Origin: Candidatus Nomurabacteria bacterium | Lineage (GTDB): Bacteria > Patescibacteriota > Minisyncoccia > Phycocordibacterales > UBA9973 | Direction of reading: 5' to 3' | Length of the DNA stretch: 64,000 nucleotides | Assembly (NCBI GenBank): GCA_020631955.1 | Contig: JACKGL010000002.1 | Location: 13,860 to 77,859 of the forward strand | In this document: piece after piece, positions 23,340-61,609 of the stretch | Numbering within the stretch: position 1 is the first letter of the stretch | How the letters are laid out: each line of letters opens with the position of its first letter | Notes under the pieces: generated by a model | The model's input: only the letters and a program-made list of their open reading frames with translations | What the model was told of the DNA's origin: nothing | The model's database searches: none | Made by a program: the position numbers and the translations under genes

Positions 23340-26710
<3,371 letters not shown>

Positions 26711-42055: not shown

Positions 42056-42081
42056 TAGAAATATTATATCATGAAAGTATT

Positions 42082-43548: not shown

Positions 43549-43558
43549 CTATATTATA

Positions 43559-44173
43559 TTATAGATTAGTTTTTAAGTTTCTGATAGAAACTTGTGTGGA
43601 TATAGTTATAGGTTCTGGCAATTTAAGTGGGTCTGTATCTATAGTAACTTCTATTTCAACAAGTCTAACATCTTCTACACTCACAGGTTGAGTAAGCGGA
43701 TCTGTAGAACCATCATAATTCTCATCATAATATTGGAAAATATATCCTACAGAAGTATCGATACCACTAGCTATTGTGGTGATAGACTCGGCCCCAGAAT
43801 CATATACAGCTGGCACACCTGAAGGCTCTATTATTCCTCTTTTAAAATCTGTCCCATCCAAAAAGTACCTCATTCTCTCTGTCTGCCCATCAGCATCGTA
43901 GTCAGTATAAAAAGTAAATTCATTATCTCCTGCTGTTTCTATAGCATACGCACCGTTTTCTGAGGTCCGTGCAGCTCTTACTTCTCCAGCTATAGGACGC
44001 ATTATTCCACGTAGCTCATCAGCTGCTTTGAGGAATTGTGAAAACATTCTATTGTAATTAAGAACATTTGCTTGAAACTGACCGGCCACTACTGCAACCA
44101 CAGCTGTTATAGCTACAGCCACCAACAGCTCTATATAAGAAAATCCTCTATTTTTATTTTTAATATTTTTCAT
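43559..44173 (-). CDS. Type IV pilin-like protein (prepilin N-terminal cleavage/methylation motif)
   Basis: It starts MKNIKNKNRG|FSYIELLVAVAITAVVAVVAG, the classic class III signal. The start at 44173 avoids overlap with the upstream gene; the ORF extends to 44212. Confidence 0.8.
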   Translation of the reverse strand: MKNIKNKNRGFSYIELLVAVAITAVVAVVAGQFQANVLNYNRMFSQFLKAADELRGIMRPIAGEVRAARTSENGAYAIETAGDNEFTFYTDYDADGQTERMRYFLDGTDFKRGIIEPSGVPAVYDSGAESITTIASGIDTSVGYIFQYYDENYDGSTDPLTQPVSVEDVRLVEIEVTIDTDPLKLPEPITISTQVSIRNLKTNL

Positions 44174-44175
44174 AA

Positions 44176-45996
44176 TTATGTTTCTGACATAAATATTTCT
44201 ACGTTTTGCCAAGAACCTGTTGATACATTTATGACAGCCACCCCTTCATTATAACCAGATTTTTCTACTAAAACATCATACGTACCAGTAGAGACTCCTT
44301 GGAAAGCAACCTGTCCTGATGGTGTACAGTCAGTAGAGTGTGTTATTGCAACATCTGTCACTGTAGGAGTATAAGCTGTATCAGCGGTTGTAAGATATGC
44401 TCTATATCTTACATATTGGTCCCCATCATGTATGCTATTTATCGTTTGGTTGCTGGTAGTATAATAAGTACCAGTTGTGCCGTCAGGACCAAGAAAATTC
44501 CAAGTTGCATTGTCATTGTTTGTAGCTATTTGGAATCTAACACTGTCTGTACCTGTCTCTGCTGGTTGAGAAATTGGAAGCCAAGTGATTTCACCCCATG
44601 TAGATGGTGATCCAGTATCATAGGTAGATGAACGCAAGTTACCAGCAGACACATACGCGCCTAATGTACCAGATATAGTAAGCTCTCCAGCGACGTTGTA
44701 TCTTACATTAGACCTGTTCCAAAACATAGTTTCATCTACAAAGTCTGCCTGCCCTGCTCCTCCTACCCAATCTGTCTGTTGAAAAGTTCCTCTATATGTA
44801 GTGTCTGTAAGTATATCTGTACCACCAGATGTCTGAGTAAGTGTCACATAAGCATCGTCTAAAGGTAACCCACTATTTAGATCTCTTACTGTCACAAGTA
44901 CTGTAGGTGTATTCTTTGCCGCCACAATAAGTTGTACCGATTGTGACTGGCTAGGCTCAACTGTAAAATCTAGAAGAGGGTTGGCTCCTACTATTTCATA
45001 AGAAGCATCATTGGATTCTATACTATATGTATCCCACTCAAGTGAAGATATAGACAGGTTTCCTCCTGAGTCAGTTGTTAGACTCTGATCATATTTATAC
45101 ACACCATAAGTGGGAAAATATCCTATGGTTTTTGCTCCATGCATATCAAAGTCAAAGCTTGCTATAGGTGTACAGGCAGCATCGACAGAGGTTATGTTTC
45201 CGCTACCGTATTTATCAATAGACAAGGTTATTTGAGTGAGATCGTTTTCTAGTACAGTAGCGTGTGGAAGTGTTGGTGTGGCTCCCCCTAGGTCTGTAGA
45301 GTCATATGTTTGGTCTGAGGAGAAAGAAGATGTCTTATCAACATATATTTCATACGCTTGTGTATAAGGTGGAGCATCTACTATAGTAAGTTCTCCATCG
45401 GCCCCCACTTGGTCATCTATAGCTATGGTTGGAGAAGCTTCATAATTCCTTATTCGTACATTGGCTGCTGGAACAGGGTCTCCTTCTGCGTCTATAACTA
45501 TTATCTTGAGTGACCCATTACCTGTGCTGTTTTCTAGACCTTTTGGTGACACTAGAGTTGTAAAAGTCTCCATATTAACAGTGCTTCCTCCTTCTACATA
45601 TCTTATTTTGAGCTCTACTTGCTTTTGATCCGCTGGAGCATCATCATCAGGAGTACCACCTTCAGTACCGTCAAAATCGTTATCTATATTACGTACTGTC
45701 CTATCTACACGAAAAGTCAATCCTTCTTTTATGTAATTAGTAGATGGATCCAATGTTCCCGGAGGAACACCCCCTGCACCGACACCTATGTTTGCATAAG
45801 GCATATTCCTAACTCTCTCAAACTCCTCGTTGGCGAGAGTCGTCATTATTTCTTTTATTTTTATTTTATTATTTAGCTTTACTATAGTAGCCCAAGCTTG
45901 ATATATAGCTAAACTCACCACCAGGAAAAAAGCAGTGGCGACTAAAGTCTCTATCAAAGTAGTACCTTTATTTCTTTTTGAAAAATAATTATACAT
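44176..45996 (-). CDS. Giant pseudopilin (606 aa) with a prepilin-type N-terminus and Ig-like/carboxypeptidase-regulatory-like repeats
   Basis: It starts MYNYFSKRNKG|TTLIETLVATAFFLVVSLAIY. Later segments such as IIVIDAEGDPVPAANVRIRN, VTVRDLNSGLPLDDAYVTL and YDVLVEKSGYNEGVAVINV resemble CarboxypepD_reg-type beta-sandwiches. Confidence 0.7.
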   Translation of the reverse strand: MYNYFSKRNKGTTLIETLVATAFFLVVSLAIYQAWATIVKLNNKIKIKEIMTTLANEEFERVRNMPYANIGVGAGGVPPGTLDPSTNYIKEGLTFRVDRTVRNIDNDFDGTEGGTPDDDAPADQKQVELKIRYVEGGSTVNMETFTTLVSPKGLENSTGNGSLKIIVIDAEGDPVPAANVRIRNYEASPTIAIDDQVGADGELTIVDAPPYTQAYEIYVDKTSSFSSDQTYDSTDLGGATPTLPHATVLENDLTQITLSIDKYGSGNITSVDAACTPIASFDFDMHGAKTIGYFPTYGVYKYDQSLTTDSGGNLSISSLEWDTYSIESNDASYEIVGANPLLDFTVEPSQSQSVQLIVAAKNTPTVLVTVRDLNSGLPLDDAYVTLTQTSGGTDILTDTTYRGTFQQTDWVGGAGQADFVDETMFWNRSNVRYNVAGELTISGTLGAYVSAGNLRSSTYDTGSPSTWGEITWLPISQPAETGTDSVRFQIATNNDNATWNFLGPDGTTGTYYTTSNQTINSIHDGDQYVRYRAYLTTADTAYTPTVTDVAITHSTDCTPSGQVAFQGVSTGTYDVLVEKSGYNEGVAVINVSTGSWQNVEIFMSET

Positions 45997-45997
45997 T

Positions 45998-47197
45998 TTA
46001 TCCTACAGTATCTAATATAGAATACATTGGTGTAAGCATGGAAATAGCAAAGAAACCTACGGCACCTCCGATAAATATCATAAGTACAGGTTCTATGATA
46101 GTAGATAAATCTTTTGTCTTTTGTTCTACTTCTCCTTCATAAAATATAGCGATCTCATCTAGCATGTTGGAAAGCTCTCCTGTCTCCTCACCCACCTCCA
46201 TCATCTCTCCAAGCATAACAGGGTAAACTTCGGTGTGTTCTTTAAAAATTTTAGATATAGGAATACCTTTTATAACATCTTCTCTGGCCTTATCTATTAT
46301 TCTCTGGAAATATACATTTTGTACTACATCGTGAGTGATCTCCAAAGCTCTAGTAACAGGTACGCCCGCCGCTAGAAGAGATGCCATGGTTCTAGCTGTC
46401 CTAGCAGCATTCATTTCTTTGACTATATTTTTTACAACAGGTAAACGAAGGACTATAAACTGGATATATTTTTTCAATTTTGGATTTTTAACCATATAAA
46501 CGATTCCACCCAAGAAAGCAGCAAACCCTAAGAATATAACGGCTGGATGATTTATAAATAGACTGGAAATCCCTATCACAAACCTAGTAGTAGGCGGCAA
46601 CTCAATACCAAGTCCTTCAAAAGTAGAAGTAAGAGAAGGCACCACAAATATCATCATCAAAACTCCGATAAGACCCATAGCCGCAACTATAATAGAAGGG
46701 TATGTCATTGCTCCTTTTACTTTTTTAGTAAGCAGATAAGATTTCTCAAGAGTTTGACCTATTTCAAGAAGAGTTTTTGAAAGCTGTCCAGACTCTTCAC
46801 CAGCACGTACCATAGAAACAAATATTACGGAAAATACTTTTTTGTGTTTTTCCATTGACTCAGAAAAACTAGCTCCTTTGTCTATATCAGATATCATAGA
46901 AGCTATTATTTTTTTGAATTCTTTATTTTTTGTTTGTTTCTCAAAAACATTCAAGGCTCTAGACAAAGTAAGTCCTGCTTTTAGCATGTTTGATAAGTTC
47001 TTAGCAAAAAGCATTTTCTCAGAAGTCTTTACACTTGAAAACAAAGAGAGAGCTTTCTTTTCTTTTACTTCAACCACTTCTAAAGGGTGGAATCCTTCAG
47101 ATTTGAGAGTCTCTAGTAGTTCTTGTCTTGATTTTGCTTCACGTACTTCGTCGACTCTTTCTCTATTTTGATTTATAGCTTTGACTTTGAAAAACAT
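45998..47197 (-). CDS. pilC: Type IV pilus / T2SS platform protein (PilC/GspF family)
   Basis: 399 aa with two GspF-type repeats (..LSRALNVFEKQTKN..; ..VTRALEITHDVVQN..), three TM segments and a C-terminal MTPMYSIL. Confidence 0.85.
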   Translation of the reverse strand: MFFKVKAINQNRERVDEVREAKSRQELLETLKSEGFHPLEVVEVKEKKALSLFSSVKTSEKMLFAKNLSNMLKAGLTLSRALNVFEKQTKNKEFKKIIASMISDIDKGASFSESMEKHKKVFSVIFVSMVRAGEESGQLSKTLLEIGQTLEKSYLLTKKVKGAMTYPSIIVAAMGLIGVLMMIFVVPSLTSTFEGLGIELPPTTRFVIGISSLFINHPAVIFLGFAAFLGGIVYMVKNPKLKKYIQFIVLRLPVVKNIVKEMNAARTARTMASLLAAGVPVTRALEITHDVVQNVYFQRIIDKAREDVIKGIPISKIFKEHTEVYPVMLGEMMEVGEETGELSNMLDEIAIFYEGEVEQKTKDLSTIIEPVLMIFIGGAVGFFAISMLTPMYSILDTVG

Positions 47198-47214
47198 CTA
47201 TATAAATTATACAC

Positions 47215-48969
47215 TTATTCGGTGATAACTCGAAGCACTTCTTCGGTAGAAGTAAGTCCTAAGACTGCTTGGTATATACCGTCTTCAAGCATAGTCATCA
47301 TTCCTTCTTTTTTCGCCTGAGCTTCAATATCATCTGATGAAGCACCTTTTAATATAAGTTCTTTTATAGTAGGAGTGACATCCATAACTTCGTGTATACC
47401 TACTCTACCTTTATACCCATCTTCACATTCTGCTCCTGGTTTTGGTCTATAAAGAGGAACTTCTTTCCAGGTGTCTGTATTTTTTATAAGTTTTTCTGCT
47501 TTTAAGAAGTCCAGCATTCTATCTAGATCGATAAGCTTACCGAGAGCTTGTATTTCAGCATCTTCCATAAAATATTTTTCTTTACTGTTGCAAAGTCTTC
47601 TAACAAGACGCTGAGCAATGATTGTCTTTACCGTAGATACAATAAGAAAAGATTCGGCTCCCATGTCTATCATACGAGGAATAGCTCCAGCTGCTGAGTT
47701 GGTGTGGATAGTAGATAACACAAGGTGTCCTGTAAGAGCGGCGTTGATGGCCAAAGACACAGTTTCTCCGTCTCGAATTTCCCCCACCATGATGATGTCT
47801 GGGTCCTGACGAAGAAGTGTACGAAGTCCGTTGGCAAAAGTAAGCCCTATTTCACTCTTCACCTGAGTCTGGTTTATTCTAGGCATTTGGTATTCTATCG
47901 GATCCTCGACTGTAGATATGTTTACATCTGGAGTATTTAACATATCAAGTACAGTATAAAGCGTAGTAGTCTTACCAGAACCAGTAGGTCCAGTAGCCAA
48001 AATCATACCCGTAGTTTGTCTCATAGCGTTGTGTATTTTTTCAAGGCCTTCTCCATGAAAACCAAGTCCTTCCAAAGTAAAACCTTTTGAGTTTTCTTTC
48101 AAAAGACGGATAACAACTTTTTCTCCGAAATAAATAGGCAAAGTAGATACACGGAAAGAAACTCTATCCCCCGCCTCTGTAGTAATACGAAATCTACCGT
48201 CTTGAGGAAGTCTTTTTTCATCCAACTTCAGATTAGAAAGCACTTTTATACGTGCCACTATACCGGCTGCTGTTTCTTTAGGTAAAACCATGGCATCATG
48301 CAAAATACCATCTGTTCTATACCTTACCAACAAAGAAGCTTCTTGTGGTTCTATGTGAATATCGGATGCGTTTTGTATTATGGCGTGAGATATAAGAGTA
48401 TCTACTATTTTTATAATAGGAAGATCTTCTGCCATTTCTTTAAGATCTTTTTCACTTGCTCCACCTTCATCACTTTCTGATACAGCTTTTAGACTCTGTG
48501 ATTCTTTTTGAATAATAGCATCGAAGTCTGCTTTAAGACTTTTTTTGTATTGGTTGAGAGCGTCTTTCATTGAAGAAGCATCTGTAAGACGAGGAAGTAT
48601 TTTAAGTCCGACTTTTTTCTTTATAAAGTCCAGCACCGGTAGGTCGTCTATATCGAGCATAGCCACCTCCAGGCCTCTGTCGCTTCTTCTGTAAGCTACG
48701 ATATTGTTCTTGGCGGCTAGAGGTTCTGGTATAAGAGAAAGCACTGCTGTGTCTATCTTTTGATTCACAAGACTCACAAAAGGTATACCTAAAACATAAG
48801 CTTCCATCCTGCGAAGCTCATCTTCTTTTACTTTACCTTCACGTAATAGAATATTTTCAAAAGGCTCTCCTGTTTTTTTGGATTCATTCGAAGCTGTTTT
48901 TATATCTTCAGCACTTACCAACCCGGATTGTTCTATGAATTTTCGGAGCTCATTTTCCTTAATGTACAT
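47215..48969 (-). CDS. pilB: Type IV pilus assembly ATPase (PilB/GspE family)
   Basis: 584 aa with a GspE-N-like N-terminus, Walker A ATGPTGSGKTTTLYT, an Asp box, Walker B IMVGEIRD and a His box LTGHLVLSTIHTN. Confidence 0.9.
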   Translation of the reverse strand: MYIKENELRKFIEQSGLVSAEDIKTASNESKKTGEPFENILLREGKVKEDELRRMEAYVLGIPFVSLVNQKIDTAVLSLIPEPLAAKNNIVAYRRSDRGLEVAMLDIDDLPVLDFIKKKVGLKILPRLTDASSMKDALNQYKKSLKADFDAIIQKESQSLKAVSESDEGGASEKDLKEMAEDLPIIKIVDTLISHAIIQNASDIHIEPQEASLLVRYRTDGILHDAMVLPKETAAGIVARIKVLSNLKLDEKRLPQDGRFRITTEAGDRVSFRVSTLPIYFGEKVVIRLLKENSKGFTLEGLGFHGEGLEKIHNAMRQTTGMILATGPTGSGKTTTLYTVLDMLNTPDVNISTVEDPIEYQMPRINQTQVKSEIGLTFANGLRTLLRQDPDIIMVGEIRDGETVSLAINAALTGHLVLSTIHTNSAAGAIPRMIDMGAESFLIVSTVKTIIAQRLVRRLCNSKEKYFMEDAEIQALGKLIDLDRMLDFLKAEKLIKNTDTWKEVPLYRPKPGAECEDGYKGRVGIHEVMDVTPTIKELILKGASSDDIEAQAKKEGMMTMLEDGIYQAVLGLTSTEEVLRVITE

Positions 48970-49011
48970 GTTTATATTATAGCAGTTATTTAAACTGTTT
49001 TTAAATATAAT

Positions 49012-49695
49012 TTAAGACTTTTTACTATCCGCTATGACTTGCCCGTCTTTGAGAGTGATTATTCTATCTGTCATCTCAGCATATTCATCTTCATGAGTCA
49101 CCATAACAATAGTTTGTCCATTATCATTTAGATTTTTAAATACTTCCAAGACTTTGGCAGATGTTTCAGAGTCTAGGTTGGCTGTTGGTTCATCAGCAAA
49201 AAGCACTTTTGGTTTGTGTGATATGGCTCTGGCTATAGCTACTCTTTGTTGTTCACCTCCTGATAAAGCGCTAGGAAGGTTATCCAATCTGTGCCCTAAA
49301 CCTACTTCTTCTAAAGCGGCATGAGCGAGTTCTCTGGCTTCATCATAAGTCATACCTTGAGCTAAAAGAGGAGCCATAACATTTTCGGTAGCAGTAAGAG
49401 AAGGTATGATAGCGTAATCTTGGAAAACATACCCCAGCTTGGTGAGTCTAATATATGTTCTGTCATCAGCGTCTATGTTATCTACTCTTTGTCCTTCTAT
49501 ATATACTTCTCCAGATGTAGGGTGGTCTAAAAGTCCTAGTTGATAAAGCATAGTGGACTTACCAGAACCAGACTTACCAGTGATAGATACAAACTGACCT
49601 TCTTCTATACTAAAAGAGACGTCGTCTACGGCTTTGATCACCTTGCCACCGTTTTGGAAATGTTTATTCAAATTTTTTATTTCTATTATATTCAT
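49012..49695 (-). CDS. ABC transporter ATP-binding protein (MacB/LolD/FtsE-like)
   Basis: Walker A GKSGSGKST, signature LSGGEQQRVAIARA and Walker B LFADEPTANLD. Confidence 0.9.
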   Translation of the reverse strand: MNIIEIKNLNKHFQNGGKVIKAVDDVSFSIEEGQFVSITGKSGSGKSTMLYQLGLLDHPTSGEVYIEGQRVDNIDADDRTYIRLTKLGYVFQDYAIIPSLTATENVMAPLLAQGMTYDEARELAHAALEEVGLGHRLDNLPSALSGGEQQRVAIARAISHKPKVLFADEPTANLDSETSAKVLEVFKNLNDNGQTIVMVTHEDEYAEMTDRIITLKDGQVIADSKKS

Positions 49696-49696
49696 A

Positions 49697-50986
49697 TTAT
49701 CTTCCTAGTATGGCACTTAATGTATTTTGTTTGACCACTATTCTAGCTGGTATAAACCCTGCAAATATTGTAGCTATCATAAGTATAGTCGCTCTTATCA
49801 TGGTAGAAGGTACAGTAGCTACCAATATTCCATCTGAAAACGGGAAGTTAATAGGGTTTTGAGCTATGAAAGGTTTGAGCACAAAAAACAAAACAAAACT
49901 CGCTACCAATATACCTAGTACTGCATAAAAAAGAGACTGGAAAACATAAGATATTTCTATAGACTTTTCACTAACACCTATCCCTTTTAAGATGCCTATG
50001 TATCTTCTTCTTGTTATGGCGTTAACGAAGATCACTATAAATATAGTAATACAAGCCACAACAAGTCCGATAGATCCTATGACATTACCTAATATCGCAA
50101 ATGTCGCCTTTATGTCTTTGAGGAATTTGGGTTGAGCATCTTCAAATGTCTGCACTTTTCCATATTCAGAAAGACCGCTGTCTACCAAGCCTTGTTTGAA
50201 CTCTTCAGCTGAAACAATATTTTCATCTATATCTACTACTATCTCATCTACGTTAAAGTCAGTCCGTCCTATTATGTTTCTTAGCTCAGTATCATTCATA
50301 TATACTCTGGCGTCTACGTCTCCTGCTTTACTCTTTATGATACCTTTTACTATCACCTCTTTTGTTGCTTCACCTATCTTAAGTCTCACACGCGAACCCA
50401 CCTCTACATTTTTAAGCGTTGTATAACTTGGAGACTCTATAGGTGTATATTTAAAAAGCAGGTCTGAACCTATCATGATATAACCAGCATCGTTTTTAGT
50501 AAGATATTCTCCTTCTATCATTTTTTGAGATATCCCAGTCACAGCATCTTCTTGATCAGGGTCGATACCTACCAAAAGAGCTCCTGCACTATTTATCTTT
50601 TCTCCTCTTTCTAAAGAGTCTCTGTAGTTGGTCTCTACAGTACCACCAGAAGCGTATCTAGAAGTGAGAGCGATATATCCTTTTGCGTTTTTCACTACGC
50701 TCTCTACATAAGGAGAATTTTTTATATATTCAAACTCGTTTTTAGGAGTGATCATCACGTCTCCTGTGTAATATTCTCTGTTGGCTTCTACTGACCCTTC
50801 TATCAGACCGACAAGTATACCGGTAACAACAGTCAGGTTTAGAAAAGTCAGCATCATAACAAACACGATGAGAGCTGTGGTCCACTTGTTGGCTCTTTTT
50901 ATTTCTCTAAAAGCCAAGAACCAAGCAAGTCCAAGTATAGTAGAAAAACTCTGTGCATCTCTTTTCTTCTTTGATTCAGCTGTCAT
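49697..50986 (-). CDS. ABC transporter permease, FtsX/MacB-like with a large periplasmic domain
   Basis: 429 aa with a TM1, a roughly 230-aa extracytoplasmic domain and 3 TMs (the FtsX topology). It is adjacent to the ATPase with a 1-nt gap. Confidence 0.8.
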   Translation of the reverse strand: MTAESKKKRDAQSFSTILGLAWFLAFREIKRANKWTTALIVFVMMLTFLNLTVVTGILVGLIEGSVEANREYYTGDVMITPKNEFEYIKNSPYVESVVKNAKGYIALTSRYASGGTVETNYRDSLERGEKINSAGALLVGIDPDQEDAVTGISQKMIEGEYLTKNDAGYIMIGSDLLFKYTPIESPSYTTLKNVEVGSRVRLKIGEATKEVIVKGIIKSKAGDVDARVYMNDTELRNIIGRTDFNVDEIVVDIDENIVSAEEFKQGLVDSGLSEYGKVQTFEDAQPKFLKDIKATFAILGNVIGSIGLVVACITIFIVIFVNAITRRRYIGILKGIGVSEKSIEISYVFQSLFYAVLGILVASFVLFFVLKPFIAQNPINFPFSDGILVATVPSTMIRATILMIATIFAGFIPARIVVKQNTLSAILGR

Positions 50987-51070
50987 ATAAAGATAATTTT
51001 ATCACATGATCTTGGGAAAATGTATTTACTATAGTATGATTTAGATACTTTAAATTTAATCAGAAATAAA

Positions 51071-51466
51071 ATGGCAAAATATTCAAAAGGGAAAAAAGTG
51101 AAGGTTGGTAAATCATATGCTGGTTTAGGGCTTTTCGCAGATGAAGACATAAAAAAGGGAGAGTATATAATAGACTACACAGGAAAAGCGCTCACAGAAG
51201 AACAGGCTGATAAAAAAGGTGGTAAATATCTTTTTGAAGTAAAAAAGAACTATTACCTAGATGGTGCAGACAGGAAACATACAGCTAGATATATAAATCA
51301 TGCTTGCAATCCAAACTGCGAACCAGACATATATGGCAAAAGAGTAATAATAAGTGCGATAAAAAATATAAAAAAAGGTGACGAACTCACCTACGACTAT
51401 GGAAAAGAATACTTTAACGAATTCATAAAACCTCACGGCTGCCGCTGCGCGAAGCATAAGAAATAA
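51071..51466 (+). CDS. Minimal SET-domain protein (putative protein-lysine methyltransferase)
   Basis: 131 aa with GLGLFADEDIKKGEYIIDYTG, RYINHACNPNCE (NHxCxPN), GDELTYDYG (ELxYDY) and the C-terminal GCRC. Confidence 0.8.
   Translation: MAKYSKGKKVKVGKSYAGLGLFADEDIKKGEYIIDYTGKALTEEQADKKGGKYLFEVKKNYYLDGADRKHTARYINHACNPNCEPDIYGKRVIISAIKNIKKGDELTYDYGKEYFNEFIKPHGCRCAKHKK
51421..51466 (+). repeat. Direct repeat, left copy (last 15 codons plus stop of the SET gene)
   Basis: attcataaaacctcacggctgccgctgcgcgaaGcataagaaataA recurs at 53198-53243 with 2 mismatches. Confidence 0.9.
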
Positions 51467-51476
51467 ATAATAAAAT

Positions 51477-53120
51477 TTAAGTTAGACTTTCTTTCATATA
51501 CAAAGCTTTTTCTGGATTCTGTATCTCAAATAAATGAACATTATTTTGATCATTATCTTTACTTCGCAGATAATTCGCGTACATTTCTTCTTCTATTATA
51601 TCATCTTGGTTTAGTGCTATTGTGTTAAATATTTGTTTTAAATATTCTTTTTTTGTCATTCGAAGAAATTCCTCAGAGCCTCGAGATAGACCGCCCCGTA
51701 CTAAGAGTTCATATAATATATCTATATGTTCATCTTTAAAAATTTCATCGTATTTTTTTATACCCAACTGATCCATTTCATACTCCAACACTCTTTTTCT
51801 AGCATCTCTTTCCGCAGGAGATAAATAGTAACCTACGTCTGACGTTTCATACTCATTCAATCTAGTGCTATCAAAAGATTCTAAATATAATTCATAAGCA
51901 TAATCTGACATAAGATAGTTACCCTCGGTGGACTGGTGTTGACGTTCATGCACCACCAAAGTTGACATCTCTTTTTCCCTTTCCAAGTTACTGTCATATA
52001 TATCACTTTCATTCTTCAAAAAAGTGGGTAAATGTATATCTTTACTTCCAGGTTCGTAAAAACCTATGACGAGCCCGGACTTACTATTGGACCCACTCAC
52101 GGAAAACATATCTGTAGAATATATAAGAAAACTCTTACTTATATTCTCAATTCTACGTTTGTATATATCGTCCCATTTTCCATGACCCCCAAACTCGTTT
52201 TCGAGTTTTTTCTTATACATATTTGAGTTCATTATTTTACTTATCCAATCTGACTGAAATACATATTCATCTATTGTTGTATTGAGTTCAGATCTTAACT
52301 TAGAAGCAAACATCTTAATGTAAGCTACGTCTTTTGTCTCCCCTAAATATCCTTTTATTTTTAGTTCTGGATTTGTAAAGTACCCATCATATTTATTGTA
52401 TTCATAAAGCAAATCCTCATATCTCTGCTTGCGTTCTAAAGCCTCTTTCACAATAGAATCCTCCATTATCTTATCTATTTGGATCTCAATATCATTCATC
52501 TCTTGCTCCGATTCAATATTTTCTTTACCTTCTAAACCTGAACTATAACTTTGGTAAAATAACTCATTGTATCTGTCTATCAATGAGTCTATTTGCATAA
52601 TCTCTGTTTGTTTTTGATTGCTCGTTTGATCATATTCACGAAAGGATTTGGCAATATCTTTCTTTAATAGTTGGATACGATAAACCTCACCTCGGAAGAA
52701 AGACTCCACTAGATCTACATCAGAAATGTTATCTATTATCTCTTTTAACTCATCTCCTCGCATTTTATACATTTCTGAATTCGCAAAAAAATGAATCATT
52801 TTATCTACATCTGAAAGATCTTCTGAGGAAAACTTTTTATCACTTTCTATGTTTTCTATTTTTTGCTTGTCTAAAATATCTTTTTCATGTTTTTTTTCTA
52901 GATATGAATCAATAGATTGGTAAGAAAAAATACCGGTAGAAAGACCTACGAGAAATATATGACATGTATGTAAAAGTCTATTTCTTTTTTGAATCTTTTC
53001 TACCTCCTCAGGAGTAAGTTCTTTTTTTTCTTCCTTTACTTTCTCTTTCCCTGTACCTGGAAATTCTTCAAATTGAGGCACCCCATCTTCCCACCCATTG
53101 GGAGTAAAATTTTCTTTCAT
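51477..53120 (-). CDS. Orphan 547-aa membrane-anchored protein with an HExxH motif (putative zincin-like)
   Basis: It has one TM (LLHTCHIFLVGLSTGIFSY), a long helical Glu/Lys-rich region and a C-terminal third with STLVVHERQHQSTEGNY. It is the only gene between the two 46-bp direct repeats. Confidence 0.6.
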   Translation of the reverse strand: MKENFTPNGWEDGVPQFEEFPGTGKEKVKEEKKELTPEEVEKIQKRNRLLHTCHIFLVGLSTGIFSYQSIDSYLEKKHEKDILDKQKIENIESDKKFSSEDLSDVDKMIHFFANSEMYKMRGDELKEIIDNISDVDLVESFFRGEVYRIQLLKKDIAKSFREYDQTSNQKQTEIMQIDSLIDRYNELFYQSYSSGLEGKENIESEQEMNDIEIQIDKIMEDSIVKEALERKQRYEDLLYEYNKYDGYFTNPELKIKGYLGETKDVAYIKMFASKLRSELNTTIDEYVFQSDWISKIMNSNMYKKKLENEFGGHGKWDDIYKRRIENISKSFLIYSTDMFSVSGSNSKSGLVIGFYEPGSKDIHLPTFLKNESDIYDSNLEREKEMSTLVVHERQHQSTEGNYLMSDYAYELYLESFDSTRLNEYETSDVGYYLSPAERDARKRVLEYEMDQLGIKKYDEIFKDEHIDILYELLVRGGLSRGSEEFLRMTKKEYLKQIFNTIALNQDDIIEEEMYANYLRSKDNDQNNVHLFEIQNPEKALYMKESLT

Positions 53121-53197
53121 GTTATTTATTATATAATAATGTTCTAAATAAGCTAACCCCTATTCAAAAACCAAGCTATACTCAATAAAACAGCGAA

Positions 53198-53243
53198 ATT
53201 CATAAAACCTCACGGCTGCCGCTGCGCGAAACATAAGAAATAG
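53198..53243 (+). repeat. Direct repeat, right copy (orphan copy of the SET 3' end)
   Basis: attcataaaacctcacggctgccgctgcgcgaaAcataagaaataG would encode the same ..FIKPHGCRCAKHKK* but has no gene body upstream. Confidence 0.9.
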
Positions 53244-53430
53244 TTATTTATCTGGTTCCAGGAGGAGGGGTTGGGTATATCTTTACTATAACAATAACTA
53301 TTTCAGGCCAATTTTTGTATCCTTACTTATATCTATCATGAGGTTTCTACGAGGTAAATACCCTCTATAATATATTTGTAATAAGTGATATATTAAAAAT
53401 ATCCGATCTTTAATGGAAAAGTATTAAAAA

Positions 53431-54663
53431 ATGGAAAACAACCTAAATTCACATATAAGTAAAAACATTCCTGGATCAATCCTTAACATGTATAAAATAC
53501 CTGGATTGAAAGAAGTTGTATATGAAAAATACTTAAAAAGTAGAGAGGCGTTTAATCGTGAAGAGTTGGAGAGTTTTGATTATGAGTATTCAATATCAAG
53601 ATTAAAAAATAATATTATTTCAAGTAAAAAAGATGATATCTACGCATTAATTTTAGAGTCTTTAAATAATGATAATATTGAAATACAGAGAGCTGGGGCA
53701 TCATTTATTTACATGACAGATAAAAACACTCAGCAGAAATTAGAAAAATTAGTACTCAATAAAGTTTTTAGTGCGTTAAATACTTCTGATATTCAAATAC
53801 AAAGAATAGGTATGAATATGATACAGTTCACACCTGAAAAAGACCAAGCAGAATTAAGATTTTTAACTAAAAATATAATTGAGTCCGGTCTAAACTCCGA
53901 AGATATACAAATATTCAGAGTCGTGGCAAAAAAAATAAACTTGGCACCGGAAGAATATCAAGAAAAATTAAAAGAGCTTTTATATTTAAAAATTAAAGAA
54001 AAACTGAGTGAAAAAAGCATAATAACTCAAAGAATTGTTGCGACTTTAATAAAATACATACCAGTTAGTAAACAAGATGAATTGAATCGTCTAGTTATAT
54101 CTAAATTCGAGGAAGCAAAAAAGGGTGGAAAAAGTAATGAAATAGTAGAACCTCTATTATACTTAAAAACTAAAATGCCTAATAATTCCAAATTATCAAG
54201 AGAGCAGTTTTCCAAAACAGGTTCAAAAACTACATTATTTTTAGGAGAGAACCTAAAAAATAATTTAATAATGCGCCACATAGAAACTGCTTGTTTCATT
54301 GCATGGAAAGAAGCCTATGAAAATTTTGAGAAATGGAAGTCTGTTGGTTTTGACTACGTACCAATAGAACCTATATATTCTTTTAGCAAAGAAAAAAACA
54401 CCAGCCTTACAAATGTTGTCTCTGGCGTGTTAGATTTAAATCTCGAAGAATGGTATTCGTTTTCTTGTAATTTATTTAAGTCAGATTTAGACGAAAAGAA
54501 AAAAGTTATTATTTCTACACTTGAGAGTATGGGTATTGAACATGGTCACCCTAACAATGATAATTTTTGTTTACGTTTTAATAGAAATGAAGACGGAACT
54601 GTAGATCTTGATACAGTTCCTCGTATATACATGATAGATTTTGATAAATCCTTTAGAAAATAG
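53431..54663 (+). CDS. Protein with four exact-period 38-aa helical (HEAT/ARM-like) repeats and a possible kinase-fold-like C-terminal domain
   Basis: Repeats at aa 78-115, 116-153, 154-191 and 192-229 share L(N/S)..(D/S)I.IQR(A/I)G....I.(F/Y).P...Q.(E/K)L. The C-terminus ..MGIEHGHPNNDNFCL....VPRIYMIDFDKSF vaguely resembles the HGD.H..N / IDF(D/G) blocks of small-molecule kinases. Confidence 0.6.
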   Translation: MENNLNSHISKNIPGSILNMYKIPGLKEVVYEKYLKSREAFNREELESFDYEYSISRLKNNIISSKKDDIYALILESLNNDNIEIQRAGASFIYMTDKNTQQKLEKLVLNKVFSALNTSDIQIQRIGMNMIQFTPEKDQAELRFLTKNIIESGLNSEDIQIFRVVAKKINLAPEEYQEKLKELLYLKIKEKLSEKSIITQRIVATLIKYIPVSKQDELNRLVISKFEEAKKGGKSNEIVEPLLYLKTKMPNNSKLSREQFSKTGSKTTLFLGENLKNNLIMRHIETACFIAWKEAYENFEKWKSVGFDYVPIEPIYSFSKEKNTSLTNVVSGVLDLNLEEWYSFSCNLFKSDLDEKKKVIISTLESMGIEHGHPNNDNFCLRFNRNEDGTVDLDTVPRIYMIDFDKSFRK

Positions 54664-54705
54664 GCGGTATTGAAAAAAATATCTAATTCTGATATAAGTT
54701 TAGCT

Positions 54706-55272
54706 ATGGCTAAGTATATTTTTGACTTTGACGATGTGCTTTTCTTTAATACAGAAAAGTTCAAAAAACATATGTACCAATGTTTTGAGGAAATCGGAGT
54801 ATCGTACGATACAGTGAAAAAATACTATAAAATCGAAAAAGAAAAAGGTTGGGTTCTGCAAAATCTTGTTGAATCAGTTTTGGATGGTGAGAATATAAAA
54901 ATAACCACTAAAGAAGACTTATCTGAAAAGATCATGAGGGTATGTAAAGAGTACACCAATACTGATCTAATAAATAGAATCAAAAAACTAAATAGAGAAG
55001 ACTGCTATATGGTGACTCATGGAGTAAAAGAGTACCAACTAGAGAAAATACAAAGGACTGGTGTGGGTTCATTGTTTAATCAAATTTTTATTGTACAAGA
55101 TACAAAAAAAGATCCTGTTGAAATGATATGTGAGAAGTTTAGAGACGAAGAGGTTATTTTTGTAGACGATAAAGAAAAACGCTTTGCAGATCTTAATTTT
55201 GAAAAATATCCTAACTTGAGAAAAGTATTATATGTAGACAACGAAAGTATTAATAAAATTTTTAATGAGTAA
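54706..55272 (+). CDS. HAD-superfamily hydrolase (phosphatase-like)
   Basis: MAKYIFDFDDVLFFNT is the DxDx(V/T) motif I, and FVDDKEKRF is motif IV-like. The ORF track starts it at a TTG at 54670; ATG 54706 is the more plausible start. Confidence 0.65.
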   Translation: MAKYIFDFDDVLFFNTEKFKKHMYQCFEEIGVSYDTVKKYYKIEKEKGWVLQNLVESVLDGENIKITTKEDLSEKIMRVCKEYTNTDLINRIKKLNREDCYMVTHGVKEYQLEKIQRTGVGSLFNQIFIVQDTKKDPVEMICEKFRDEEVIFVDDKEKRFADLNFEKYPNLRKVLYVDNESINKIFNE

Positions 55273-55278
55273 TTATTA

Positions 55279-57393
55279 ATGAACGATAGTTTTACAAAGT
55301 TTATACCAGAAGATAAATCGTGGCTCACAAGGGTAGGTGTATTAGATATAATAAATGGTTACACAGATATTGAAAAGTTCATCGACCAACTATCTAATGC
55401 AAATGAAGATGTACTCGCTATTAGAAATGCTAGTAAAGACTGGAGAAGTAATAGTAAAATACGTGTTGGTGAATCAGCTACTTTATATAGACTTCTCAGA
55501 TTTGCTGCTTGGAAAATGGATTTAAATAAAACATTTATAATAAAAGGTAGCTTAAAAAAAAGACATATAACAAACAACCCGGAAATAATTAAACTTAAAC
55601 AGAAAGATCTACTTAAATTAGATAATGAAACCACCCAATGGGCGACTGCTTCGGTTATATGTGGTGATTTAGAAAGGTTACCTAACCCACCATTAAAGCT
55701 TAAAGAAACATATGAGGCAGTAGATCATTGGAATTTAAAAAGGGGTCAGGGTTTGTGTTGGGATGTTAAATATGATGTAACGATTGAAAGACAAGCTCAT
55801 ACTTTTCTTATGTTACTTAAAAATAAACCCGTTGATTATACTCCTTTGTGTTCTGATGATTACTGTTTTGCAAGAGTGTTTGATTTTATAAATAAAGAAA
55901 GCGGGGCTAAGTTCTGGCCCAGTTTAATTGGACACGAAACTAACCGTATTGAAGAAATGGAAATAGCTATAAAAGAAGCAGAAAGTACTCTTCACATCAC
56001 ATCAGAAGATCACCGGGTGATACAAGCTCTATCAATGTGGGGTGTATTAAAAAACAAAAATCTTATCTTTAAACATAAAAAAGCTGTGAACAAATCATGG
56101 CCACTTTTTTGGGATTTTTTAGAGTATGCAAAAAAAGAATCAAAAAATGAAAACATTTTAAATGATACCGTAGTTAACAAAACTCATAAAGACATCTTGG
56201 GTATGATTTCTCAAGAAGTAAAAAAAGAGAATGATACTATTTCATTAATACCCTCTGAAAATATAATGAGTAAATTGGCAACTAGTGCATATACACTTAA
56301 CAGTAATAACCGTTATATTATAAAATCTAAAATAGGCTCAAGATATTTCATGCCAGGTAGAGAAAATTTGGGTAATTTAATATCTATTCTTGAGAAAAAA
56401 TTGTGTCAGGCATATAATGTTGAGTTTTGTATAACAAAAGGTCTTTCTGGTATTCACAATATGGATATAGTAATGTCAGCTATTAATAAAATTTCTAATA
56501 AAATTATTATTATAGATACTTTGAGTGGTGGGCATAGTAAAACTAAAGGTATTGCAATAAAAAATGGTTTCCAGGTTGAAACGATAAAAATAGACTTTGA
56601 TACTTGGGATTTAGATTATAAAATTTTAGATAAGCTAATTAAAAAGTGGGAAAAAGAAAGTGTTTTTATTTATATAGACCACACAGTATCAGTTAACCCA
56701 TTAGATATGCACAAGCTTGTAAAGAAAGTTCCCTCTAAGTGGATCATTTATTATGATATCTCCCATTTACAACTGTTTTACTTTACTCAAATTTTTAAAT
56801 TTCCTAGGGGAAAAAACTTCTTTTTTGGTGGAAGTACACATAAAACATTTCCTGGCCCACAAAAGTCTATAGTATTATTAAATAATAGATCATTATATGA
56901 GTTAGTTGATTCTGAATTCGTAAAAAACACCTCTAGTGTACATACCGGCAGTTTATTAGCTCTACTTATAACTGTAATTGAGATGGAGAAGTTTGGTAAA
57001 AAATATGCAGAAGATATATTACTAAAAACAAGAAAGCTCGCTAAATTACTGAGTAGAGAGCTTGATGTGATTGGTCCGAAACCCACTCTAACAAACACTC
57101 ACCAAATCTGTATTGATGTTCCTAATATAGTTGAAATTACTCAACGTCTAGCATCTGTTGGTATTATTACTATGCCCATGAGAACCCCCTCAAAAAATAA
57201 AAGCGGTCTTAGGCTTGGTATACAAGAATTATGCAGACTGGGGTTAAAAGATAAACATTTAGAAACGATATCTAAGGCTATAATTACTTGTGTAAAATAT
57301 GAAGACTTTGAAAGTCAAAAAAGAAACATTTACAGATTAGCTAAAAAGCTAAATAATATAAAATATACATTTCCTAATAAAAAATACTTCTAA
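55279..57393 (+). CDS. Fusion protein: shortened EPSP-synthase (AroA)-like N-terminal domain + divergent serine hydroxymethyltransferase (SHMT)-like PLP domain
   Basis: SHMT half (about aa 300-704): ISLIPSENIMS (vs IELIASENYTS), RYFMPG, SGGHSKTKG (vs HGGHLTHG), DISHLQL (vs DMAHVAGL), GGSTHKTFPGPQ (vs TTTTHKTLAGPRG, the PLP-Lys), NTHQICIDV (vs DNHLFLVDL) and SGLRLGIQELCRLG (vs SGIRVGTPAITRRG). N-terminal half: KSWLTRVGVL (vs AroA KSVSNRALLL), VGESATLYRLLRFAAW...IIKGSLKKRHI (vs LGNAGTAMRPLAAAL...LTGEPRMKERPI) and SEDHRVIQALSMWGVL......KSWPLFWDFLE (vs YNDHRMAMCFSLVAL......KTFPDYFEQL). Confidence 0.7.
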   Translation: MNDSFTKFIPEDKSWLTRVGVLDIINGYTDIEKFIDQLSNANEDVLAIRNASKDWRSNSKIRVGESATLYRLLRFAAWKMDLNKTFIIKGSLKKRHITNNPEIIKLKQKDLLKLDNETTQWATASVICGDLERLPNPPLKLKETYEAVDHWNLKRGQGLCWDVKYDVTIERQAHTFLMLLKNKPVDYTPLCSDDYCFARVFDFINKESGAKFWPSLIGHETNRIEEMEIAIKEAESTLHITSEDHRVIQALSMWGVLKNKNLIFKHKKAVNKSWPLFWDFLEYAKKESKNENILNDTVVNKTHKDILGMISQEVKKENDTISLIPSENIMSKLATSAYTLNSNNRYIIKSKIGSRYFMPGRENLGNLISILEKKLCQAYNVEFCITKGLSGIHNMDIVMSAINKISNKIIIIDTLSGGHSKTKGIAIKNGFQVETIKIDFDTWDLDYKILDKLIKKWEKESVFIYIDHTVSVNPLDMHKLVKKVPSKWIIYYDISHLQLFYFTQIFKFPRGKNFFFGGSTHKTFPGPQKSIVLLNNRSLYELVDSEFVKNTSSVHTGSLLALLITVIEMEKFGKKYAEDILLKTRKLAKLLSRELDVIGPKPTLTNTHQICIDVPNIVEITQRLASVGIITMPMRTPSKNKSGLRLGIQELCRLGLKDKHLETISKAIITCVKYEDFESQKRNIYRLAKKLNNIKYTFPNKKYF

Positions 57394-57560
57394 TTTTATT
57401 TCCATGCACATCAGCTAGTTATGTGGGGGAAAATGGTTTGACAAAAGGGTAAAATAATGATTCAATAGAGATAAGAGGATTTGTTGGGAATACTACGTAA
57501 ATTTCCAACCTCAATCCCCTGAATTCCTTAAAAATTTTATAACACTAAACCCTAACTATC

Positions 57561-58820
57561 ATGAAAAAGTTAACTATTTTTTTGTTAACCTCTATCATGA
57601 TGATAGGGGTAACTTTTGGACAATTTAACACCTACCACTTCGAAGGAGTGGAGGCGTTCTCTTTTGACTGGGAAAATGGTGAAGAAGCCACCACTTCCAA
57701 TTCGTTCTTCGAGATCGATGAGGAGAAATTTGGCTACAGCCACCTGAATATCCAGAAAGAAGACGGCAGAACGTTCTTGGTGAATTCCAAGAATGATGTG
57801 GCCGAGTACTTCAACTACACCTTAGCCGACAGGCCGGTGGATGTAGTAACCGTAAATAGCGGTGTGATATTCGTATCCACCAAAAACGGAATCTACAACC
57901 TGGAAACAGGGGAAATGCTCTCTGGTATCGAAGGTTTCATCACTGGAACCAATGGTAATATCAGGATGGATTACGACCCCGTGCTCAACCGCTTGTATTT
58001 CGCAGGTGGAAAAGTAGAAGGGTTCGGCTTCAGAGACTTTGAAAGTGGTATAACCACTTTTTACGGTTATCTGGATGAATTTCCTGACTATGCTGTCAAC
58101 GATATCGAAGTAGTGGATGGTGATGTATACATCGGAGCTGGTGAGCTTTGGGTGTATAACGTCATATCTGAAGACTTCGGACTGATCGAAGGTGTGCCGA
58201 GCTTCCTTTCAGTAGGAGGTATCGATGAACTCCCGGACGGATCTATATTTGTAGGTGGTGCTGACCTAAGCAACCAGAACACACTGGTATGGATCAAGAA
58301 TGGAACATACCAGAACGAGTACGCTTTATCTGGCATCCCTTTCTTCTACAATGGTGAATACTTCCTTAGTGGAAGTGCCGGACCTGCAGACGACGGGTAT
58401 TTCCATTACTTTGATCCTGTAACTGGTATCACGTCATCTGTGGTGGCTAGTGGAGTGGATATGCAAAACAACATCCAAGTAACTTTAGTTGATGGAGAGT
58501 TTTGGTTTTATTCACAATACGGAATAGCTACAAACATTGTAGGTGTAATGGGCTACTATGGTTATCCTGTGGCCAGACTGACCGATGACGAGATCGTGGG
58601 TATCCATGATACACAGATACTGTCATTTACTATCTACCCCAACCCCACCACTGAGTGGGTGAAGGTAGAAGGGCTCCCTGCCGGGACTCCTTTGTGGATG
58701 ACAGATGCCATTGGTCGTAGCATAGAGGTTACCCTCATCGCTGCCAACACCATCGATGTGAGTCGACTCCAATCAGGAATTTACTTCCTCAATGGAAAAA
58801 AACTCATAATCCAAAAGTAA
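57561..58820 (+). CDS. Secreted beta-propeller-like protein with a type IX secretion (Por) C-terminal sorting domain; compositionally foreign
   Basis: It has the signal peptide MKKLTIFLLTSIMMIGVTFGQ. The last 65 aa or so, LSFTIYPNPTTEWVKVEGLPAGTPLWMTDAIGRSIEVTLIAANTIDVSRLQSGIYFLNGKKLIIQK, match the T9SS CTD pattern (YPNP...., .D..G(R/K)........ID.S.L..G.Y). Hand GC count is 27/60 at 57661-57720 against 19/60 at 56401-56460. Confidence 0.75.
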   Translation: MKKLTIFLLTSIMMIGVTFGQFNTYHFEGVEAFSFDWENGEEATTSNSFFEIDEEKFGYSHLNIQKEDGRTFLVNSKNDVAEYFNYTLADRPVDVVTVNSGVIFVSTKNGIYNLETGEMLSGIEGFITGTNGNIRMDYDPVLNRLYFAGGKVEGFGFRDFESGITTFYGYLDEFPDYAVNDIEVVDGDVYIGAGELWVYNVISEDFGLIEGVPSFLSVGGIDELPDGSIFVGGADLSNQNTLVWIKNGTYQNEYALSGIPFFYNGEYFLSGSAGPADDGYFHYFDPVTGITSSVVASGVDMQNNIQVTLVDGEFWFYSQYGIATNIVGVMGYYGYPVARLTDDEIVGIHDTQILSFTIYPNPTTEWVKVEGLPAGTPLWMTDAIGRSIEVTLIAANTIDVSRLQSGIYFLNGKKLIIQK

Positions 58821-58829
58821 CGTTTTTAC

Positions 58830-58859
58830 AGATCCTGACTGAAAAGTCAGGATCTTTTT
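58830..58859 (+). terminator. Rho-independent terminator of the T9SS-CTD gene
   Basis: agatcctgact-gaaa-agtcaggatct is an 11-bp stem followed by ttttc. Confidence 0.8.
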
Positions 58860-58894
58860 CGTTTCTACACTAGTATATATACTTATCAAATATT

Positions 58895-58918
58895 AAATCC
58901 CGACTTGAGTCGGGATTT
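58895..58918 (-). terminator. Terminator of the minus-strand secreted-protein operon
   Basis: aaatcccgac-ttga-gtcgggattt lies 23 nt downstream of the stop at 58941. Confidence 0.7.
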
Positions 58919-58940
58919 AATTCAACAATAAACGTGAAAT

Positions 58941-59759
58941 CTATAGACAAAGGTTGTTGTTCTGAGCCGCTACACCACCATAGTGAGTGCTAGAGTTTTT
59001 ACCTGTGACATCTGTGACGTCTAGGTCTATACCCCAGCTATATAGTGGATAGTTCTTGTCTACTACTAGAGTAATACTAGAAGAAGTGGTGCCTCCTGAT
59101 ATGGTAGCATCTCCTACGAGAGAGTGCCAAGAATATGTATATGGAGGAGCCCCTGCACCACCTATGGTAGCAGAAAGTGATATGGTCTCACTACAAGTAC
59201 CACTAGATATAGTGCTCTTTGTGATGGTAATAGGGAGACTCTGGCTACATATGACCACCTTGCCATCTGCGTCTGCACAAAGCGGCGCTCCGTATAGTAT
59301 GTCTGGATTTTCAGCTGAAGAAAGTGAGTTTATTTTAATTGAGTTACTATTAGGAAAATCTATATGTAAAGCCTCAGTTGGAGATGACTCTGCAATTCCA
59401 ATCTTTCCACCCACGAAAACAGAAGCATCTTCATTGTAAGGAATAGTACCCACAAAAGCAGATCCTTCTTCTAAAATGGATGACCCTTCAACATAGGTGC
59501 CTTTCGTAAATGATATACCCCCGGCGTCAAACTTATAGTTTACCAAGTCAGCAAGAGCTGGGTCTGCATATCCTACAGCCACAGAACCTTGTCTGGTCTG
59601 GTCTGGTGAAAGTCTGTTCACTGGTGTAGCGACATTGTTTAGTGGTGGCGCACCGTCAGCGTTGGTCCATGTAGCATCTGCTCTATCCATACGAGCCATA
59701 CCTATAGCTAGTACTAGAGCAAGACTTATTATTCCTATTGTACGATAAATTTTTTTCAT
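58941..59759 (-). CDS. Secreted Gly/Thr/Ser-rich protein, paralog C (W..PP..N...P(I/V)N motif, Cys-loop, C-terminal P.TY.W Ig-like domain)
   Basis: The start MKKIYRTIGIISLALVLAIG is signal-like. Motifs are TWTNADGAPPLNNVATPVNRLSPDQTRQGSVAVG, GGKIGIAESSPTEALHI, LCADADGKVVIC and GGAGAPPYTYSW. The ORF extends to 59792. Confidence 0.7.
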   Translation of the reverse strand: MKKIYRTIGIISLALVLAIGMARMDRADATWTNADGAPPLNNVATPVNRLSPDQTRQGSVAVGYADPALADLVNYKFDAGGISFTKGTYVEGSSILEEGSAFVGTIPYNEDASVFVGGKIGIAESSPTEALHIDFPNSNSIKINSLSSAENPDILYGAPLCADADGKVVICSQSLPITITKSTISSGTCSETISLSATIGGAGAPPYTYSWHSLVGDATISGGTTSSSITLVVDKNYPLYSWGIDLDVTDVTGKNSSTHYGGVAAQNNNLCL

Positions 59760-59763
59760 AACA

Positions 59764-60747: not shown

Positions 60748-60748
60748 A

Positions 60749-61597: not shown

Positions 61598-61609
61598 TTG
61601 TATTATACA

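Follow-up and report, generated by a model that had tools for sequence, protein, structure and literature searches.

The question raised by this locus is why the 3′ end of one gene occurs twice in a Candidatus Nomurabacteria genome with a single oppositely oriented gene between the two copies, and whether this repeat is the attachment (att) site of a mobile element or the trace of another kind of exchange. The window, which is the whole 64-kb stretch of DNA analyzed, carries a gene encoding a 131-residue SET-domain protein (SET), followed by a convergent gene encoding a 547-residue protein (the cargo) and then by a second copy of the last codons of SET. The segment bounded by the repeat is present in some strains and exactly absent from others that are nearly identical in their flanks. 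We tentatively read the repeat as a scar left by recombination at the border of a hypervariable island rather than as an att site belonging to a self-contained mobile element, a judgment that falls somewhat short of an even chance. The features of the locus are listed below by window position, where L107, L109, and L110 are outgroup alleles and L109 and L110 carry the two closest SET homologs outside the species.

51071–51466, plus strand: SET-domain gene, 131 amino acids (Pfam PF00856, E = 8e-25)
51420–51466, plus strand: repeat copy 1, the last 15 codons of SET and its TAA stop, with G at 51454
51467–51477, no strand assigned: the 11 nt after the SET stop, ATAATAAAATT, matching ATAACAAAATT after the stop in L110
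51477–53120, minus strand: cargo gene, an open reading frame (ORF) of 547 amino acids
53121–53196, minus strand: 76-nt upstream region of the cargo gene, beginning with GTTATTTAT (53121–53129)
53197–53243, plus strand: repeat copy 2, an orphan SET 3′ end with A at 53231 and a TAG stop
53241–53247, plus strand: TAGTTAT, left copy of a 7-nt direct repeat and source of the TAG stop in copy 2 and in the empty allele
53248–57415, plus strand: three-gene low-GC block (410, 200, and 704 amino acids)
53249–53277, plus strand: terminator-like hairpin
57416–57422, plus strand: TAGTTAT, right copy of the 7-nt direct repeat
57424–57667, plus strand: promoter region and start of the Por_Secre_tail gene (57561–58820), with a BLAST match in L109

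Presence and absence of the 1.8-kb segment

The exact SET protein was looked up in public assemblies, which returned 14 contigs that include both filled and empty states of the site. The filled allele is found in the window, in L001 (a 140-kb ENA contig), and in the short contigs L004, L005, L008, and L010. The exact empty site is found in L002 (a 644-kb contig of GCA_041402165.1) and in L006, L007, and L009, which are three short contigs from two other studies, and the allele evidence is drawn from four assembly sources. In the empty contigs, SET leads into one repeat copy, which is followed at once by the sequence from 53244 on. Filled and empty states encode an identical SET protein, and the empty-site strains are ~99.9% identical or better to the filled strains in the flanks. 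NCBI labels the proteins of the locus as Candidatus Nomurabacteria or Paceibacterota bacterium, and SET itself as SET domain-containing protein, Candidatus Nomurabacteria bacterium. Two NCBI assemblies encode the cargo (MCA9355953.1, with locus tag H6790_00330, and MCB9820382.1), and the filled allele is carried by samples SRR14234116, SRR14234118, SRR6747803, and SRR28338157 and by those behind ERZ27309384. The first-pass annotation of this DNA, made from the letters alone, had proposed looking for an empty site in related genomes as a check; L002, L006, L007, and L009 supply it exactly, and the contrary picture that it had sketched, in which all relatives share one arrangement and no empty site exists, does not describe this species. 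The 1.8-kb segment is therefore a genuine presence/absence polymorphism whose junction is the repeat.

The direct repeat spans 47 nt and its copies are offset by 1,777 nt. Copies 1 and 2 differ at two positions over 47 nt and at one over 46 nt; the first difference, at 51454/53231, is a synonymous AAG/AAA change, and the second is the final base of the stop codon, TAA in copy 1 and TAG in copy 2. Uninterrupted identity within the repeat amounts to 34 + 11 nt. Copy 1 has the sequence AATTCATAAAACCTCACGGCTGCCGCTGCGCGAAGCATAAGAAATAA and ends in GCGAAGCATAAGAAATAA, and copy 2 ends in GCGAAACATAAGAAATAG. Recurring 46-mers with three or fewer mismatches numbered zero in 100 dinucleotide-preserving shuffles. 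A search for further copies of the 46-mer, also suggested at first pass, found no third copy in the 64-kb window. The same annotation had described the last 46 nt of SET as recurring with two mismatches around 1,731 bp that carry exactly one opposite-strand gene. The repeat and the single minus-strand gene are as described, with the corrections that the repeat begins one base further left (51420, giving 47 nt) and that the interval between the copies, 51467–53196, measures 1,730 bp.

The sole long ORF of the insert is intact and takes up 1,644 of its 1,730 nt (95%), and no gene remnants accompany it. The ORF is separated from the SET stop by 10 nt and is preceded by an upstream region of 76 nt. 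The hexamer TATAAT was read by eye on the minus strand within 53121–53196, and a promoter scan reported no promoter-like sites in this region. An insert composed of one intact gene without remnants is a poor fit to the decayed integrative element that the first-pass annotation had offered as one explanation. A decayed second SET gene in front of copy 2 was considered and rejected, as no similarity extends upstream of copy 2 beyond the repeat.

Some contigs break at the repeat itself. L003 ends at 51465, where the TAA and TAG versions branch, L018–L022 start at 53201, and L014–L016 consist of the insert only (~1.8 kb). L023 (SRR17907852) begins further to the right, at 53259. The interpretation of L014–L016 as circles was rejected, since a k = 31 assembly graph is expected to break at the 34-nt identical stretch.

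The flanks of the site differ sharply in their divergence. The window and L001, both filled, show no differences in 43,000–57,000. A comparison of the window with the empty L002 gives one single-nucleotide polymorphism (SNP) in 43,420–51,465 and 23 SNPs in 53,197–57,420, which is a divergence to the right of the site ~45-fold that on the left; the right flank of L002 departs from the window at about one site per 180–600 nt (~0.5%). L006 and L007 carry their own SNP at 53532 and, although they come from different studies, share a second breakpoint after 53615, inside the gene for the 410-residue protein. Past this breakpoint L006 continues (L006:1475–1497) into an unrelated GC-rich sequence, CGGCACCCGTGTCTACACCTCGG, that was matched nowhere else in the data examined. 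Given these differences, simple deletion from the window haplotype accounts for none of the observed empty genomes, and simple insertion into any of them does not account for the window. The site separates DNA segments with different histories. Two types of empty junction occur: G...TAG in L002, and A...TAG, which equals copy 2, in L006, L007, and L009.

A hypervariable interval and the native SET end

The conserved core gene SET stands at the left border of a variable interval. Positions 51467–57423, between SET and the Por_Secre_tail gene, hold at least five different contents among strains and species with conserved flanks (the window, L002, L107, L109, and L110), with the L006/L007 breakpoint in addition. 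L109 comes from a syntenic sister species with ~80% nucleotide identity over window 41090–51467. Its SET stop is followed by 17 nt and then by a homolog of window 57424–57667 (L109 10486–10737, 82.6% identity by BLAST), with all of 51467–57423 missing, and this homology places the right border of the variable interval at 57424. In L110 the interval is occupied by a YcaO-nitroreductase gene and a DUF2268 gene. L107 is 98% identical to the window across FtsX–SET. At L107:1038–1431 (Logan SRR14234119), a different convergent gene stands at the same 10-nt spacing after the SET stop; it is represented by a 127-residue C-terminal fragment that has no Pfam match and returned no homolog in a fragment search, and the far end of this allele is not assembled.

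The GC content is 0.314 in the insert and 0.296 in the block that follows, compared to 0.376 and 0.42 in the flanks. The block encodes a 410-residue protein of unknown function, a 200-residue HAD-like protein, and a 704-residue SHMT-like fusion. It measures 4.2 kb, lacks a mobility gene, and is absent from L109; all strains of the species examined carry it except L006 and L007, which leave it after 53615. The block is flanked by the TAGTTAT direct repeat (53241–53247 and 57416–57422), a motif that occurs seven times on the plus strand of the 64 kb. The terminator-like hairpin directly follows the SET stop in the empty allele and lies 1.8 kb away from it in the filled allele. A decayed third 46-mer at the right end of the block (~57.4 kb) was rejected because local alignment scores there were no better than those of shuffles.

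The locus is a flexible genomic island, or hotspot, between conserved core genes. It shares with known flexible islands at least five contents at a fixed position, a low GC content (0.30–0.31 versus 0.38–0.42), and borders at core gene ends. It differs from them in the 46-nt duplication of the border gene end and in the stacking of two contents, and there is no integrase or tRNA gene at the site.

Which copy of the repeat is native was examined by comparison with the outgroups. The SET stop is TAA in copy 1 and in all three outgroup alleles (L107, L109, and L110). The 11 nt after copy 1, ATAATAAAATT, are the only window 11-mer within one mismatch of the ATAACAAAATT that follows the L110 stop (1 of 127,980), and the BLAST alignment with L110 runs on to 51477. 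The shared TAA and the 11-nt match make copy 1 look like the ancestral SET end, so that copy 1 and the next 11 nt appear to be the native end of the gene, abutted by the cargo gene. Copy 2 exactly matches the SET end seen in the empty-type contigs L006, L007, and L009 (A...TAG) and is the derived, empty-type SET end, fused as ...GAAA|TAGTTAT. In L110, TAGTTAT lies 15 nt after the SET stop. The G/A position of the repeat is synonymous and variable among relatives. The position of the site at the left edge of a hypervariable interval, together with a native copy 1, makes recombination between haplotypes at least as good an explanation as att-type integration.

A second short match lies within the locus. 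The 9-mer GTTATTTAT occurs three times in the window (both strands counted), and two of these occurrences, 53121–53129 and 53243–53251, are 122 nt apart, one abutting the cargo start codon and the other abutting copy 2. The pair may mark a further microhomology that took part in shaping the locus.

Origin of the repeat

The unequal copies of the repeat rule out a target-site duplication and mean that two pre-existing homologous sequences were brought together. The favored scenario is a recombination scar in which two haplotypes are stacked. Haplotype X would have carried the ancestral SET end (TAA followed by ATAATAAAATT) and then the convergent cargo gene, and haplotype Y a SET gene fused to TAGTTAT, with its TAG stop, and then the 410/200/704-residue block. 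The window genome would hold X and Y head to tail in tandem, joined by one homologous crossover in the shared flank and one illegitimate joint at 53196/53197. The route may have been homology-facilitated illegitimate recombination (HFIR) after DNA uptake or an equivalent Campbell-type single crossover of a circularized fragment. HFIR combines one homologous anchor with one illegitimate joint at 3–10 nt of microhomology. With X as the recipient and a Y donor fragment starting 46 nt before the SET stop, the product would be the standard insertion-deletion outcome, and copy 2 would be 46 nt of the SET gene of the second haplotype, carried along as a passenger. Once formed, the 46-nt repeat could act as a deletion substrate and regenerate an empty-type site. 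In this scenario we infer the former existence of X alone, the type of joint, and transformation as the route of DNA delivery.

The window encodes a competence toolkit of ComEC, RecJ, PilB, PilC, and a pilin-like gene, and experiments have demonstrated natural transformation in Patescibacteria (PMC10633639). Several competent bacteria are described as showing HFIR in a passage of PMC6382021 that cites de Vries & Wackernagel 2002 and Prudhomme et al. 2002. The sharp change in divergence at the site and the orphan gene fragment are compatible with HFIR. In the favored scenario the locus would resemble the products of HFIR and Campbell-type insertion-duplication in having perfect homology on one side and a nonhomologous joint on the other, in the passenger gene fragment at the joint, and in the competence-equipped organism. 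It differs in that both segments are kept here, with no insertion-deletion, and the process has never been observed experimentally in this organism.

Several points weigh against the recombination scar. Haplotype X alone, meaning SET and the 547-residue gene without copy 2 after it, was found in no contig examined. Classical HFIR usually produces insertion-deletions, and a version with Y as the recipient would need a joint that lies within the tract of homology. At 53196/53197, any microhomology of the joint is unreadable. Integration of a circle by a single crossover, whether RecA- or integrase-mediated, likewise duplicates the homologous segment directly, and the different cargo of L107 at the same 10-nt spacing is also what a cassette system would be expected to show. 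The recombinase searches described next cover ~55 kb of the window, and the remaining genome amounts to ~0.6 Mb or more.

Mobility machinery was sought in and around the insert. Recombinase and transposase Pfam domains are absent from the called genes of window 1–21.6 kb and ~27–61 kb (~55 kb together), which is also the outcome for the orphan recombinases that the first-pass annotation had thought worth seeking, and no IntI is found among the same genes. The annotation was right that the insert has no mobility gene, as Pfam, PHROGs, and PADLOC all gave negative results; the insert ORF contains an HExxH...E motif rather than a recombinase motif, and a role of the cargo as a defense gene was rejected for lack of a PADLOC match. 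Terminal inverted repeats of 14 nt or more are absent from the insert ends, as is a transposase. No attC-like fold was found at 53121–53250, where the DNA folds of the two strands did not exceed those of shuffles in stability (z = +0.87 and +0.98). Outside this context (eight contigs) the exact cargo protein was not found, and its 90% cluster contains no variant from anywhere else. Neither the repeat core nor close cargo relatives had a match in JGI metagenome contigs, IMG/VR, PLSDB plasmids, or GenBank phages, and neither a second locus nor a circular form of the insert was found in the assemblies examined. The 80 SET loci of GTDB species representatives have neither the cargo nor a duplicated gene end, and these loci are too distant for synteny (best 63% amino acid identity). 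A dif/Xer site or replication origin at the strand switch was considered and rejected, because the GC-skew minimum there follows gene orientation; no dif-like core was convincing by eye and no DnaA-box cluster was found at the switch.

The main rival is a minimal integrative cassette moved in trans, a 1.78-kb circle with the SET 3′ end as attP and one gene with its promoter, whose integrase would come from another part of the genome or from a helper element. We regard this as unlikely. It accounts for the formal attL/attR/attB anatomy with a regenerated target gene, for the unequal copies, since the incoming DNA would bring its own copy of the site, for filled and empty alleles within the same studies with L003 stopping exactly at the TAA/TAG branch, and for the single convergent gene of L107, another cargo at the same distance. 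It has an established model in the cis-mobilizable element (CIME), an att-flanked, integrase-less remnant of an integrative and conjugative element (ICE) or integrative and mobilizable element (IME) at a gene 3′ end (PMC5704250), and the cassette can be likened to a CIME or to a cassette at a dedicated hotspot. The locus shares with CIMEs direct repeats that include the target gene 3′ end, the lack of recombination and transfer genes, and an empty site in related strains; it differs in that no parental remnants are present, no cognate ICE or IME is known and none is seen in the 64-kb window, the insert is only 1.7 kb with one intact gene, and the host belongs to the candidate phyla radiation (CPR). 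Prophages, ICEs, and IMEs offer the same parallel of attL/attR-like 47-nt repeats and attB-like empty sites in relatives, but the insert has no tyrosine or serine recombinase of its own and the unit is not found elsewhere. Against the cassette stand the lack of an integrase in the insert and in the called genes of ~55 kb of the window, the lack of remnants of a larger element, and the lack of the unit or its core at any other site, genome, plasmid, or virus searched. The 80 other SET loci show no duplication, the neighboring 4.2-kb block is not bounded by the 46-mer, and cargo family members elsewhere are ordinary chromosomal genes. The different flank haplotypes of filled and empty strains argue against very recent hopping. 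A broader version, in which the SET 3′ end serves as the attachment site for a family of integrase-less single-gene cassettes in CPR bacteria moved in trans by an unlinked recombinase, similar to an integron without attC, is suggested by the two different cargos at the same 10-nt spacing (the window and L107); it is improbable. Like integron cassettes, the locus has a single promoter-proximal gene unit without its own recombinase and different cargos at one site, but it lacks an attC-like hairpin (z = +0.9) and IntI, and its flanks are 46-nt repeats of a protein gene end instead of a 7-nt core site. Of the claim that the duplicated gene end is the signature of site-specific integration, the discrete insertion/deletion with repeat junctions, the unchanged SET protein, and the empty sites hold up, but no recombinase, circle, or movement to another site was seen.

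A rival that concerns direction only takes the filled state as older and the empty alleles as products of deletion between the 46-nt repeats, through either RecA-dependent unequal exchange or slippage during replication, perhaps in several separate events. We consider it less probable than the cassette, although it has its attractions: the empty junction is exactly one repeat copy, the 34 + 11 nt of uninterrupted identity would be a substrate, and the G...TAG junction of L002 is a hybrid of copies 1 and 2 and the other junctions equal copy 2, so crossovers at different points would give both types. The deletion leaves the origin of copy 2 unexplained, and no empty genome has the right-flank haplotype of the window. 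The two junction types are also weaker as proof of homologous deletion than they seem, because the G/A site is synonymous and polymorphic and L002 is ~0.5% diverged on the right, at which divergence a SNP inside the 47-mer is not unlikely (~8%). Transposition or staggered-cut insertion with a 46–47-bp target-site duplication would also leave an insert flanked by direct repeats and is very improbable. Of the 47 positions, 2 differ between the copies, whereas 14 kb of flank are identical between strains, the 11 nt after copy 1 are native sequence, and the locus departs from transposons and insertion sequences in these unequal copies, in the 46–47-nt length of the duplication, and in lacking terminal inverted repeats and a transposase. 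The first-pass annotation had set transposon target duplications aside on the length of the repeat, and the inequality of the copies leads to the same verdict. An assembly artefact, either a chimeric join or a short-repeat collapse, is the least credible explanation. De Bruijn assemblies do break at the repeat (L014–L016, L003, and L018–L022), but long independent contigs span both states (140 kb ENA, filled; 644 kb NCBI, empty) and several short contigs from other samples cross each junction.

The evidence points to an ordinary event at a flexible island and not to a new mobility mechanism. The locus is a base-resolved example of a change in gene content between near-identical strains of an uncultivated and poorly studied CPR lineage, in which a 46-nt orphan gene end still records the joint and is now able to mediate gene loss. 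If the recombination scar is the correct explanation, the locus offers indirect evidence from the field that the genomes of Patescibacteria are shaped by DNA uptake and illegitimate joining; if the cassette is correct, it is a pointer to an unrecognized trans-acting integration system.

The cargo protein and other features of the window

The cargo protein opens with a hydrophobic helix at its N terminus, continues through a long helical region, and carries a conserved C-terminal domain (approximately residues 270–510). A full HMMER search across 1.84 billion representative proteins returned 258 relatives at E ≤ 1e-3, with a typical length of 330–420 residues. His391, Glu392, and His395 of the HExxH motif and Glu437 are invariant in 31- and 66-member alignments; Tyr431, Ala440, Arg441, Lys442, and others are invariant in the 31-member alignment and conserved at 90% or more in the 66-member alignment. 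The HExxH...E pattern is a gluzincin-like or zincin-like signature with the downstream glutamate as the putative third ligand, and the motif suggests a metallopeptidase function. No Pfam family was assigned to any of the 66 family members, and the cargo has no sequence match in the PDB. AlphaFold (AF2) models have a mean predicted local distance difference test score (pLDDT) of 77 for the full length and 87 for the conserved domain. Foldseek found no PDB match with E < 1 for the pLDDT-87 domain model, and the PDB matches of the full-length model were rejected as coiled-coil noise. The cargo is a predicted membrane-anchored HExxH...E protein of an uncharacterized family, which may be a new zincin-like family in CPR bacteria. 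A strain-variable gene from a sizeable (at least 258 members) uncharacterized membrane-anchored HExxH...E family, with a confident model and no relative of solved structure, may act at the cell surface or in host interaction in a strain-specific way.

The closest cargo homolog, P0001 (41–42% identity), lies between a KH-domain gene and NUDIX/trmD, downstream of rpsP, and a weaker homolog, P0002, adjoins uvrB. Both are ordinary housekeeping chromosomal neighborhoods in other CPR genomes, and no flanking repeats were found around the gene in either of the two neighborhoods.

Strains otherwise identical over 14 kb have most of their divergence in two patches of the window. One, at 42300–43000, is an 87% identity patch in large proteins beside the pilin-like gene. 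The other, at 57500–61500, surrounds Por_Secre_tail and its neighbors and has ~93% identity over 58947–63073 compared to L002. The two patches suggest recombination-driven diversification of surface proteins.

The window contains a 23S rRNA gene at 23340–26707 on the minus strand, whose 3,368 nt exceed the 2,925-nt model by ~440 nt of insertion(s). A 5S gene (23159–23266, minus strand) follows it, no 16S gene adjoins, and ARAGORN found no tRNA genes in the 64 kb. Beside the rRNA genes, 20636–23086 is a tandem paralog array of four minus-strand ORFs (149–187 amino acids, GC 0.24–0.26) whose spacers, of 131 and 51 nt, are repeated. At 7604–11579, two GH130 glycoside-hydrolase paralogs of 636 and 682 amino acids lie side by side and contain a 36-nt motif that occurs three times at ~1-kb spacing.

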